The notes under the pieces were generated by a model, which saw nothing but the letters and a program-made list of their open reading frames with translations, searched no databases and was not told where the DNA came from. Shown here piece after piece: positions 3,993-51,464 of a stretch of 64,000 bases of DNA. Position 1 is the first letter of the stretch; every line of letters begins with the position of its first letter. Source of the DNA: Eledone cirrhosa (lineage: Eukaryota); NCBI GenBank assembly GCA_964016885.1, contig OZ024746.1:85932001-85996000 (forward strand), given 5' to 3'. The position numbers and the translations under genes were made by a program.

Positions 3993-4789
3993 AACTTCTC
4001 TCTCTCTCTCTCTCTCTCTCTCTCTCTCTCTCTCTCTCTCTCTCTCTCTATATATATATATATATATATATATATATATATATATATAAATCAGAGAAGG
4101 TTTGGTAAGATACCAGGTGGGCCATAACCAACCAGAGTGAGTATTCGATACATGGGGTAGTAGAGTGGGTAATATAAAAAGATTCAGGACCCCGACGGCT
4201 GAGCTCCGCCGTTTCGGATCTAAGTTCGGATCTAGCTGTCGAAACGGCCGGAGCTCAGCCATCGGGGCCCTGAATCTTTTCGTATATAAATATTAGGACT
4301 AGTATGAATATAAATATTTATATATATATATATATATATATATACATGAACACACACACACACACACACACACACACACACACACACACACACACACACA
4401 CACACACACACACACACACACACACACACACACACACACACACACACACACACACACACATATATCTATATATCTATATATCTACACACATACCTATGGT
4501 GCCTGTTGTGTGTGTCAGTTCTATTCAGATGGCAGAGTGTGACCCATATTTGTCAGAAGGAGGGGTGGTGGAGGGTAGAGGTGGTTGAATGGAGGAGAAC
4601 AATGGACGTCTCACAATTTGTATTGATTTTCTCTCACACCTTCTCCTCCCCTACCAACACCAATAATACCAATACCTCCGCCACCATTTACACCACTACC
4701 AACATCACACCCATAACTGTTGCAAACTTGCATTTGAACTGTCAGCAGTTTTATGTGTGTATATATATATATGTGTGTTTGTGTGTGTG

Positions 4790-6370
4790 CGCATGCGTGT
4801 ATTTGTGTGTTTATATTTGTAAGTATGTGTATGTGTATGAGTGCGTATGTGTGTATTTATGTTTGTAAATATGTGTATGTGTATGTGTATGTGTATGTGT
4901 ATGAGTGCGTACGTGTGTATTTATGTTTGTAAATATGTGTATGTATATGAGTATGTGTATGTGTATGAGTGCGTATGTGTGTATTTATGTTTGTAAATAT
5001 GTGTATGTATATGCGTATGTGTATGTGTATGAGTGCGTACGTGTGTATTTATGTTTGTAAATATGTGTATGCGTATGTGTATGTGTATGTGTATGAGTGC
5101 GTACGTGTGTATTTATGTTTGTAAATATGTGTATGTATATGAGTATGTGTATGTGTATGAGTGCGTATGTGTGTATTTATGTTTGTAAATATGTGTATGT
5201 ATATGAGTATGTGTATGTGTATGAGTGCGTATGTGTGTATTTATGTTTGTAAATATGTGTATGTATATGAGTATGTGTATGTGTATGTGTATGAGTGCGT
5301 ACGTGTGTATTTATGTTTGTAAATATGTGTATGCGTATGTGTATGTGTATGTGTATGAGTGCGTACGTGTGTATTTATGTTTGTAAATATGTGTATGTAT
5401 ATGAGTATGTGTATGTGTATGAGTGCGTATGTGTGTATTTATGTTTGTAAATATGTGTATGCGTATGTGTATGTGTATGTGTATGAGTGCGTACGTGTGT
5501 ATTTATGTTTGTAAATATGTGTATGTATATGAGTATGTGTATGTGTATGAGTGCGTATGTGTGTATTTATGTTTGTAAATATGTGTATGCGTATGAGTAT
5601 GTGTATGTGTATGAGTGCGTACGTGTGTATTTATGTTTGTAAATATGTGTATGTATATGAGTATGTGTATGTGTATGAGTGCGTATGTGTGTATTTATGT
5701 TTGTAAATATGTGTATGCGTATGTGTATGTGTATGTGTATGAGTGCGTATGTGTGTATTTATGTTTGTAAATATGTGTATGCGTATGTGTATGTGTATGT
5801 GTATGAGTGCGTACGTGTGTATTTATGTTTGTAAATATGTGTATGCGTATGTGTATGTGTATGTGTATGAGTGCGTATGTGTGTATTTATGTTTGTAAAT
5901 ATGTGTATGCGTATGTGTATGAGTGCGTACGTGTGTATTTATGTTTGTAAATATGTGTATGTATATGAGTATGTGTATGTGTATGAGTGCGTATGTGTGT
6001 ATTTATGTTTGTAAATCTGTGTATGTATATGAGTATGTGTATGTGTATGAGTGCGTATGTGTGTATTTATGTTTGTAAGTATGTGTATGTATGTCTATGC
6101 GGTGTTTTGTGTGTTTATATTTGTAAGTATGTGTATGCGTATATGTATGGTCTGTGTGTGCGTATGCCTGTATTTGCGTGTTTATATTTGTATGTGTATG
6201 TTTATGTGCATGTGTATGCGTATCTGTGTATGTGAATGTGCATGTATATGCGTATATCTGTGTGTTTATGTGTATGTGTATGTGAATGTGCATGTGTATG
6301 CGTATATCTGTGTGTTTATGTTTGTATGTATGTGTATGTGTGTGTTTATGTGTGTATGTATGTGTATGTG
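4790..6370. repeat. Minisatellite with ~50-62-bp unit built from GTAT/GTGT motifs
   Basis: Recurring GTGTGTATTTATGTTTGTAAATATGTGTATG...GAGTGCGTA, more than 20 copies. Confidence 0.92.
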
Positions 6371-6554
6371 AAATTAGTTTTTTGTATACATACATTTCTT
6401 CTAGCCTTTTACTATGTACTAATCCCAGTTTGTCTCTCCTTTATCTCTCTATCTACACACACACACATACATATATACATACACACGCACACACACACAT
6501 TAATAGAAGTGTAGATGAAAGTATATACCCTTGCAAGTAACAATTCAACCAATT

Positions 6555-6910
6555 TTACTGGAAGTGAAACATGGTCGCTTTCATCCAAACAACAAAAGCG
6601 CCTTAATGGCTCCTACACTCGCCTACTTCAACGCATTCAGAACATAAGCTGGCGACATCTGACTTTGAGAGAGATATATGCCGGCCTCCCACGCATATCT
6701 GTCGTTGTACATAAAAGCAGAGTAAGATTTGCTGGCCACTGCCATCGTGCTATCTATGAGGCTGTGTCCCCATTAGTGCTTTGGAAACCACAAGCAGTCA
6801 CTAATAACAGGGGGCGAAAGCTCTCCTATCCCGATGTCATCTCCAGAGATTCTGGTATTGAAATCCATGATTTGGTAACGGCAATGAACGACAGACCCAC
6901 TTGGAGATCA
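6555..6910 (+). mobile_element. RTE/RTEX-like LINE ORF2 C-terminal fragment
   Basis: GSETWSL...LNGSYTRLLQRIQNISWR...RVRFAGHCHR...LVLWKP...RGRK...MNDRPTWR. Confidence 0.8.
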
Positions 6911-48680: not shown

Positions 48681-49473
48681 GTGAAGTACCAGGGCTAGAT
48701 CAGATAGAGGGATATCTAATGGGCTGTATCGCACGATTAATGCTTCAGTATATGTGAAACACACACACACACACACACACACACACACACACACACACAC
48801 ACACACACACACACACACACACACACACACACACACACACACACACACACACACACACACACATACACACACACACACACACACACACACACACACACAC
48901 ACACATACACACACACACACACACACACACACACACACACACACACACACACACACACACACACACACACACACACACACACACACACACACACACACAC
49001 ATACATACATACATACAGTATCCAAGATACACCTTTAGCTTCATATCCATCATTATTGGAGCTACGGGTTATATACCAACCCGCTTGGACCAAAGTATGA
49101 CTGAACTTGGATTTGCGGACAAAAAGCGCAGCTCCCTAATTCATAGTCTGCAAATGGTTGCGATAGCTGGCACCTTCAAAATTTGCAAAACATTCTTGCG
49201 ATTCAAGGGATGACAATTTCTTTTCTTTTACAACCTTGTCACCAGGAAGGTGGCCGGTCAAAAAAATATACTCGAAATTAAGAGAAAGAGATAACATACA
49301 TACATACATACATACATACATACATACGTACATACATACATACATACATGCATACATGCATACATGCATACATAATACACATATATATATATATATATAT
49401 ATACACACACATATATATATATATATATATATATATATATATATATATATATATATATATATATATATATATA

Positions 49474-49551
49474 CAGGGTGTGCCCCAAACAATGTATACA
49501 TAATTTGATTAGAATGCTGTTGAAGTGTGAATACATTTTTTGGGGCATCCT
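49474..49551. mobile_element. Tiny Tc1/mariner-type MITE; related copy at ~59588-59692
   Basis: CAGGGTGTGCCCCAAA...TTTGGGGCATCCTG inverted ends flanked by TA. Confidence 0.65.
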
Positions 49552-51464
49552 GTATATATGTATATATATATAATATATACATATAAATGCATATATATAT
49601 ATATGTATAATATATATATATATACATATATATATATGTATAATGTATAATGTATATATATATATATATATATATATATATATATATATATATATATATA
49701 TATATATATATATATATATATATATATATATATATATATATATATATATTATATATATATATATGCATATATATACATATAGAGAAACCTGCTTGAAATA
49801 TGTGTTGGTGTTGTTGTGAAAGGAATTACTTTTGAGGCAAGGTTAAATGATCGTTAAATGTGCTTGAAGCAGAATTTCTCTATTGTAAACAACAGACATG
49901 TTTTCACAACAGCAATTGTTCACTGGTCTTGCCGTTTGGTGTTGTCATATGCTGGTGTTGTTGTTGTTATGTTGGTAGGTGGATTAATAGATATAACCAT
50001 ACATATTTAGATAACACACACAAACACACACGTGCACATATATATATATACACAGGGGAGAGGGAGTGAGACATTTATATATATATATATTGATATATAT
50101 GTTGATATGTATATATATATATATATATATATATATACATATATGTATGTATGTATATATATATATATATATATATAAATATATATATATATATATATAT
50201 ATATATATATATATATATATATATATATATATATATATATATATCAACATATATATATTTATATATATATGTTGATATGTATATATATACATATACATAC
50301 ATATATATATATATATACATATACATACATATATATATATATGTATACACATATTTATATAGGTTCCTTATGTTCAAATTGTGTATATCCCTTGGGGACG
50401 ATGTTTTATTGACCCTTATATATGTATAAGATATTCTTTATATATATTATTATAGTTTATATATATATATATATATATATATATATATATAGAGAGAGAG
50501 AGAGAGAGATATGTCTATATATATATATATAAATATATATATATATAAATATATATATATATAAATATATATATATATATATATATATATAAATATATAT
50601 ATATAAATATATATATATATATATATATATATATAAATATATATATATTTATATATATATAAATATATATATATAAATATATATATATATATATATATAT
50701 ATATATATATATATAAATATATATATATAAATATATATATATATATATATATATAAATATATATATATAATGAAGGAAGTGTGATAAGGAACCAGGTGGA
50801 CCATAAGGCACCAGAGTACTCAATACTAGTAGAGTGGGTAATAGGAAAAGAGTCAGGACCCCGACGGCTGAGCTCCGGCCGCTTGGACAGCTATTTCTGA
50901 ACGTTCAGAAACAGATGTCGAAACAGCCGGAGCTCAGCCGTCGGGGTCCTGACTCTTTTCACACACACACACACACACACACACACACACACATCCACAC
51001 ACACACACACACACACACACACACACACACACACACACACACACGCACGCACGCACGCACGCACGCACGCACGCACGCACGCACGCACGCACGCACGCGC
51101 ACACACACACACACACACACACACACACACACATATATATATGAATGTATATACAGTGTATTTTGCAATACACTGTATGCTTAATTAAAAGCATTTTGAA
51201 GACCTTACGCTATTGTTTTAAAGTAGTGACTATGTCACTTACTTCTATTTTCAGCATTTCAGCAAACAAGGGGAGATAAGCTGACAGATATGCTGAAATA
51301 CACTATATATACATTCATATATATATATCGCTATTTCAGAACACCAATTCTAATTTTCAATTTTTGCTGGACCGGCAACCGCTCTGTATAATCAGTTCCT
51401 GATCATTACTGGAATTCTATAAGAATCCAACATTCATAATTTTCAGCAAACAGGAGGAGTGCTA

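Follow-up and report, generated by a model that had tools for sequence, protein, structure and literature searches.

The stretch analysed here, called the window, comprises 64,000 nucleotides of the Eledone cirrhosa genome (assembly GCA_964016885.1, contig OZ024746.1, positions 85932001-85996000; genome size 3.0 Gb) and carries seven copies and one fragment of a mini-palindrome, every one lying in a (TA)n repeat. These mini-palindromes are head-to-head pairs of short 5' leader copies of a Hydra-clade Penelope-like element (PLE). All of them were found where the original prediction had placed them, the solo copy starting at 21407, and CTGANGA was absent inside all the listed window copies, as that prediction had observed. 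The motif GTC...GTC attributed to them was indeed common to the copies, with ATC or AAC replacing GTC in some arms, and the fragment at 9917 was present but held only the part from about the ribozyme cut site onward. The central "imperfect hairpin" turned out not to be a pre-existing structure but the junction of two truncated arms, and the arm lengths, described as variable, instead reflected a concentration of the 3' ends at two sites, +58 (short) and +138 (long), each directly before TAT in the parent element. Positions are numbered from +1, the A of AGTCC/AGTTC, 15 nt 5' of the G in GTCGAAA, and the predicted ribozyme cut falls between +41 and +42. Table 1 lists the copies in the window.

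Table 1. Copies of the mini-palindrome family, and one pair of a second PLE family, in the window.
Feature	Position	Strand	Description
Pair, subtype B	4090..4281		Left arm (-) with long 3' end, truncated near +19; right arm (+) from +1 (4223), short 3' end
Pair, subtype A	8169..8370		Long arm on the left (-), +1 at 8307; short arm on the right (+), +1 at 8310
Stub	9917..9939	+	Lies in (TA)n; starts about 3 nt 5' of the ribozyme cut site; 3' end short
Solo short arm, subtype B	21407..21465	+	Begins exactly at +1 beside (TA)n; partner absent
Pair, subtype B	27434..27621		Long arm on the left (-), +1 at 27571; short arm on the right, beginning about +5, middle altered
Exceptional pair, two long arms	44499..44731		Left from the ribozyme cut site (TCC common to the junction); right from +3 (44594)
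Pair, subtype A	46565..46757		Long arm on the left (-), +1 at 46703; short arm on the right, beginning at +7 (46704); junction blunt
Pair	50769..50960		Both arms from +2 (50902 -, 50903 +); left long, right short
Second PLE family, head-to-head pair	3540..3980		Intact CTGATGA ribozyme per arm (3666 -, 3810 +); centre about 3738

A genome-wide search with a 28-letter core pattern returned 46,680 exact matches, the reversed pattern used as a control returning 0. Head-to-head pairs separated by 0-30 nt numbered 12,515 and those separated by 31-60 nt 6,145, giving at least 18,660 together, these totals being lower bounds because an exact match was required at both anchors. As palindromes belong to known types of artefact, they might have arisen by fold-back during library preparation or by misassembly, an explanation whose probability we regard as negligible: the arms differ at 0-16 of 43 letters, end at two fixed and unequal sites and are flanked by TA, and opposite-strand joints were found at the same site in short-read contigs of run X2, which may be the assembly's own sample. 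An origin from a miniature inverted-repeat or other DNA transposon was rejected, since the ends are unequal, the centres are variable and the parent encodes a reverse transcriptase (RT), as opposed to fixed terminal inverted repeats around a constant core. A non-LTR retrozyme, described in bioRxiv 10.64898/2026.07.22.740005 as head-to-tail tandem units with a complete ribozyme in each, was also rejected, as the units here are head-to-head or solo and lack the 5' ribozyme half.

Long copies were reached by walking upstream, and one of them (L122) is a near-complete element with a 710-residue frame containing YRDD and YIGLT, its first codons sitting in a different frame. The 710-residue protein carries RWR at 27, DKT at 109, CNCPDRSIC (CxCx5C) at 564, CNLC (CxxC) at 662 and CKH (CxH) at 690. 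Because these match the RWK-like, DKT, CxCx5C, CxxC and CxH motifs that define the Hydra clade in PMC8557442, the parent, judged by its predicted protein, is a Hydra-clade C-terminal endonuclease-containing (EN+) PLE. Insertion in (TA)n, a feature of this clade, was found for the window and genome-wide copies alike, and one open reading frame (ORF) combines an RT with a C-terminal GIY-YIG-like endonuclease, as expected of EN+ PLEs. The tandem pseudo-long terminal repeat (pLTR) of such elements was also recognized: the leader enters the ATG of the ORF 231 nt past +1 in L191 and L192, as well as in the truncated L126, and L122 carries a 3' copy of the pLTR. The Neptune and Nematis clades were rejected, the protein having no CX2-5CxxC match and DKT in place of DKG. 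Pfam searches returned nothing above cut-off for the parent protein, GIY-YIG reaching E 0.069 on L121, and its RT was not recognized by sequence searches of the PDB; the Atlas neighbours (0.96-0.99) were animal proteins with GIY-YIG, RVT_1 and HTH_animal in part of the members. A candidate short intron was also observed in the leader of L191 and L192, with a donor at +97 (GTGAGT/GTGCGT) and acceptors at +145 and +160 (TAG), spanning the 3' end of the long arms. It also covers an upstream ATG, which most copies have at +104.

The long copies contain, in order, CCCC-TTGANAA-G, a helix of about 9-11 pairs closing on AAATAGCCG, GTC-GAAA, a stem III with GAGCTC, and TC-GGGG, which is a predicted type I hammerhead with the U3-A8 variant core CCCC-UUGANAA. 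The original proposal that the short copies hold the 3' half of a hammerhead, here of type I, and belong to a Penelope-like element is borne out; the missing half was located directly after CCCC, as had been anticipated, but reads UUGANAA and not CUGANGA. TTGANAA occurred in 39/48 distinct long copies, position 7 alone varying, and CTGAGAA in 3/48, while G10.1-C11.1 was paired in 47 of the 48 and the stems were mostly paired. The minimum free energy structure of L062 was a three-stem hammerhead fold, other copies folding differently. Alignment of seven subtypes showed that 87% of cells pair and that three stem II pairs change on both sides, a modest covariation, since 24 of 500 shuffles scored as high as the three double-changed pairs. 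Rfam detected no hammerhead in the window or in a long copy, its matches in the window being simple-repeat microRNA models. CTGANGA within 38 nt occurred at 54 places genome-wide, and the 30 viewed were junction products or cross-family chimeras. An abundant CTGAGAA subtype (L003, L072, L206) has a C3-A8 mismatch and is predicted to be a poor ribozyme. A close counterpart is described for the Schistosoma Cercyon PLEs (PMC4209133), with the same U3-A8 core covariation, short stem I, G10.1-C11.1, a palindromic loop 3 and opposite-strand motif pairs. Unlike in Cercyon, stem III has 5-6 pairs here, stem II is very long, and the putative transcription start discussed below would split the ribozyme.

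The ends of the arms were then mapped on 149 arms from loci not selected on upstream sequence. Counted from the G of GTCGAAA, the mapped 3' ends clustered at 43-45 nt (60 arms) and 123-125 nt (55 arms) downstream. A long end was combined with a short one in 116 of 117 pairs with both anchors, a set that includes loci picked by query or gap size, and in 21 of 22 further pairs with one anchor, the exception being the window copy at 44499; the same pairs show the inverted 5'-truncated copy and the tail at one end that characterize EN+ PLEs. This one-of-each rule (137/139 pairs) sets the family apart from the inverted PLE copies published in the sources cited here. Both arms belonged to the same subtype in 92/117 pairs, whereas 1000 shuffles gave 22 on average and at most 35.

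The 5' ends proved equally restricted. Of the 149 arms 19 were long, most others ended between +7 and -4, and only 3 between -8 and -24; the longer arm of a pair ended at -4..+2 in 87/117 pairs and beyond -10 in only 3/117, the values -4 and -7 being partly inflated through chance likeness to the partner arm. By a second measure with a maximum of +1, 45 of 122 arms, long copies included, got to +1. The boundary site is TTAGTC, TCAGTC or TTAGTT (TYAGT) in every subtype, lies inside stem II and resembles the arthropod initiator consensus. In contigs of run X2 (possibly, as said, the assembly's own sample) joint ends fell at L191:8103-8109, where +1 is 8108, in 5/12 and 7/11 joints of two tables. 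A reading of the boundary as a splice acceptor, TTTAG|TCC, was rejected because many arms retain AG and more, and a cut at GUC|CAG because arms run past that point.

The base preceding +1 gave a further indication. The native -1 base is G in 0/65 copies, whereas a hand count of 53 distinct TA-abutting arms among the matches listed returned T in 34, G in 12, C in 5 and A in 2. At the control position +5, G was found in 3 of 100 listed rows (Fisher p 2e-4 vs 12/53; matched subset 7/39, p 5e-3). Nine of the twelve arms with G at -1 were long and three short, one of the nine belonging to a pair with a TA centre. These figures replace a first count (G 20 and A 7 of 86) that was biased by the choice of L001-L060, without which G was 9 and A 6. 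Untemplated G has been ascribed to copying of the cap in L1 and SVA (PMC3287187), and for the Drosophila virilis Penelope an initiator-containing internal promoter is reported within the pLTR (PMC2377424). We infer a capped transcription start at +1.

Two RT events might also have occurred with the fixed 5' boundary representing, in place of a capped start, a stall or RNA-processing point in the long stem II (inner hairpin, U-run or bound protein). In the predicted L062 fold the boundary does belong to the 3' arm of an inner hairpin, which is weak, T-run expansions are seen at junctions and the ends spread over about 10 nt, but the untemplated G is specific to -1, the inner hairpin varies between subtypes in which TYAGT is kept, and other families stop at CAGT-like sites distant from their ribozymes. 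We consider a stall or processing point unlikely.

The original prediction had attributed the palindromes to a nascent complementary DNA (cDNA) that snaps back on ribozyme stem II and self-primes the second strand, an idea similar to a published one (Arkhipova 2013): for PLEs, PMC3846280 proposed self-priming with a template that may be antisense. The inversion centres are indeed sharply non-random and lie within the span of stem II, which is a real helix of 10-11 pairs with double-sided changes, and one pair (L090) fits a fold-back on the small inner hairpin. As a snap-back on stem II must leave the native loop at the centre between perfect arms, its product can be searched for directly: the predicted product (subtype A forms) had 0 matches genome-wide vs 18,660 pairs, and the native loop was kept in none of the 50 centres listed. 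The cDNAs stop about 20 nt short of the 5' arm of stem II, and the rarity of longer arms past -10 reported above also speaks against the snap-back. Moreover, in the second PLE family, whose CTGATGA ribozyme is intact, the inversion lies 60-70 nt upstream of that ribozyme (81 pairs; 15 loci read), the family following the two-end rule in about 10 of the 15 loci, with arms ending at CCAGTG. Snap-back on stem II thus appears very improbable as the mechanism.

A related possibility, following PMC3846280 and PMC8557442, is that one cDNA from the long site folds back on its own 3' end, the endonuclease cutting or stopping the second strand at +58, with later deletions scrambling the centres. It accounts for one long and one short arm and for their common subtype, and some centres are perfect palindromes or have templated inserts. 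If a single cDNA were folded back, the long-tail arm should always contain the other arm, a prediction that fails in the counts. Among the 117 pairs the further 5' reach belonged to the long-ended arm in 49 and to the short-ended arm in 47, the two being equal in 20, and the short-ended arm was ahead by at least 3 nt in 25; without pairs found solely in query-selected loci the same comparison gave 35/26/12. In the window, the pair at 4090..4281 exemplifies a further reach of the short arm. Of 22 pairs examined by eye, there are 7 (L024, L067, L068, L159, L161, L172, L186) in which the long arm ends at or before the start of the short arm, so that the arms do not overlap and there is no palindrome to fold. 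At the kilobase scale, the short-ended arm was longer by hundreds to thousands of bases in 4 of the 12 pairs listed (L099, L121, L125, L132). Solo arms of both kinds occur, three of the solo short arms having G at -1, and most junctions are blunt, overlap by 1 nt or contain short inserts. A biased search also returned head-to-head chimeras with another PLE family (L032, L039, L048, L051), in which the partner ends at CAGTT. As fold-back of one cDNA would require a separate later deletion for each of these contrary cases, we judge it quite unlikely. The junction is different in each of the four chimeras, which suggests cross-family template use.

A minor class of arms starts at the ribozyme cut site. 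Among the matches listed, a hand count of 89 distinct TA-abutting stubs showed 41 starting exactly at GGGG, the cut site, 8 more doing so with extra letters, 11 starting one base later, 16 retaining the preceding C and 13 ambiguous (TT, possibly by CpG decay). In a wider listing, 18 of about 52 start at +42, while among the 122 local arms an end at +41/42 is seen in 5. Compared with the +1 class, this class is about ten times smaller (63 vs 717 minus-strand matches, obtained with patterns that are not identical). These starts suggest occasional cleavage by the predicted ribozyme in cells; a boundary effect of the G-run may be an alternative source.

These data led us to favour a process in which two RTs, primed from the two nicked (TA)n strands, start at two fixed sites on one capped sense RNA and copy it up to the 5' end, a reading to which we assign a probability of about 0.7. 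For an anole PLE in vitro, PMC11167929 reports that the protein cuts and extends both strands, that reverse transcription begins at two internal sites bounding the tail and that uncleaved RNA is the main template, a dimer being predicted. Taken with the counts presented here, this result makes twin priming on one capped RNA the simplest model. Transcription would begin within stem II of the upstream ribozyme copy, at the A of TYAGT, the mRNA leader thereby containing just the 3' half-ribozyme. The TAT beyond +58 and +138 could pair with the (TA)n primer, and, because nearly every insertion consists of one arm of each kind and of the same subtype, both sites are likely used by a single complex, be it on one RNA or on RNAs of a common source locus. 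Run-off cDNAs of 60-140 nt would result from priming in the 5' leader, whereas the long inverted copies that include the ORF would result if priming took place in the 3' read-through copy. Before end joining, the cDNA ends would lose a few bases and in some cases gain untemplated ones, while failure of one enzyme would leave a solo arm.

Several observations weigh against twin priming on one capped RNA as stated. The start site and the cap are deduced from DNA only, G at -1 being found in just about a quarter of the arms; the arm ends are scattered over about -4..+7, and the T-runs could equally reflect stalling and slippage. A clear downstream promoter element was not seen by eye at +28..+32. 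Later deletions at the palindrome centres could blur polarity, gene conversion between the arms could have made their subtypes alike afterwards, and pair L090 fits the fold-back on the inner hairpin mentioned above. The counts would fit one RNA or two RNAs from one locus alike, two enzymes on one RNA would need strand displacement, which is assumed for the Hydra clade, and the supporting in vitro work concerns another clade, Poseidon. A broader formulation, to which we give even odds, is that PLEs integrate by obligatory twin priming (a dimer, two fixed sites and one capped RNA), that the promoter start splits the ribozyme so that the leader cannot self-cut, and that the read-through U3-A8 ribozyme cleaves in cells at low frequency.

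The window also holds other repeats. At least six further families have complete hammerhead cores beside (TA)n, two of them as head-to-head pairs; complete-core sites lie at 3666/3810, 7929, 21610, 25132, 26777, 27992, 45582/45656, 46390 and 59891, and PLE-like remnants are dense. One family (L040, L060 and window 45582-45656) has its centre near CAAGATGGCG in place of the CAGT motif. We take CAAGATGGCG to resemble a YY1 motif. More asymmetric palindromes without an obvious hammerhead core occur, flanked by (TA)n, at 8900-9210, 9540-9750, 10055-10130 and 43710-43950, and are probably other PLE families formed in the same way. In addition, a large GGT-rich tandem array with 9-15 nt spacing extends from 16035 to about 21000 and recurs at 63350-63710, and a minisatellite of TATGTG units with a period of about 45-57 nt occupies 4750-6080.

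Finally, the family was compared with known systems. It shares with the Hydra-clade EN+ PLEs of Craig et al. 2021 (PMC8557442), including Hydra-1_Obim of Octopus bimaculoides, the RWR and DKT motifs, the CxCx5C linker, the (TA)n target, a hammerhead, CxxC and CxH around a conserved E/N, together with a C-terminal GIY-YIG-like domain. That text reports canonical ribozymes for the clade and "no pLTR" for Hydra-1_Obim, and attributes the tail to endonuclease resolution; unlike those elements, as far as their description goes, the family studied here possesses a pLTR and a U3-A8 core, its stem II measures about 55 nt and its tail 80 nt vs 30-40. As in PLE insertions with an inverted 5'-truncated copy (PMC8557442, PMC3846280, PMC2377424), the copies are head-to-head, with an optional tail at one end, a putative start site in the pLTR and a candidate 5' intron. 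The published accounts, however, invoke either resolution by the endonuclease or self-priming with a template that may be antisense, whereas the present data favour a sense capped RNA that is primed twice. The Anolis Poseidon element PAc (PMC11167929) resembles it in vitro in having two internal RT starts that bound the tail, both strands cut and extended, and uncleaved RNA as the main template; as far as it was consulted, that study differs in drawing no link to inverted copies or to run-off at the RNA start and in reporting no reads ending at the cut site. In L1 twin priming (PMC9148063) a second nick likewise primes internally on the same RNA and produces an inversion, and an untemplated G marks the copied cap (PMC3287187). 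In L1, however, the second site is variable and inversions are a minority (PMC9148063), whereas in the family studied here neither site varies, overlap of the arms is usual and insertions are paired as a rule.

The element class, the inverted copies, the tail, the U3-A8 core and the pLTR promoter are already known. A literature search of titles and abstract beginnings, with older subscription papers and Repbase outside its scope, found no twin-priming account of PLE inversions, and neither this search nor the publications cited here gave the one-of-each rule, the absent polarity, the cap-like G or a start that splits the ribozyme. Published work asks for mechanistic study of how the inverted repeats and one-sided tails of PLEs originate. 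Here, tens of thousands of tiny insertions provide a record of the integration reaction from which counted rules can be drawn; these concern the two fixed sites of priming, their use once each in an insertion, the run-off at a start that is likely capped, and the small class at the ribozyme cut. These rules connect the 2024 in vitro result, with its two start sites and both strands, to genomic structure, and favour a sense, capped template. Obligatory twin priming, if true, would explain the inverted pLTR and the one-sided tail of PLEs in one step.

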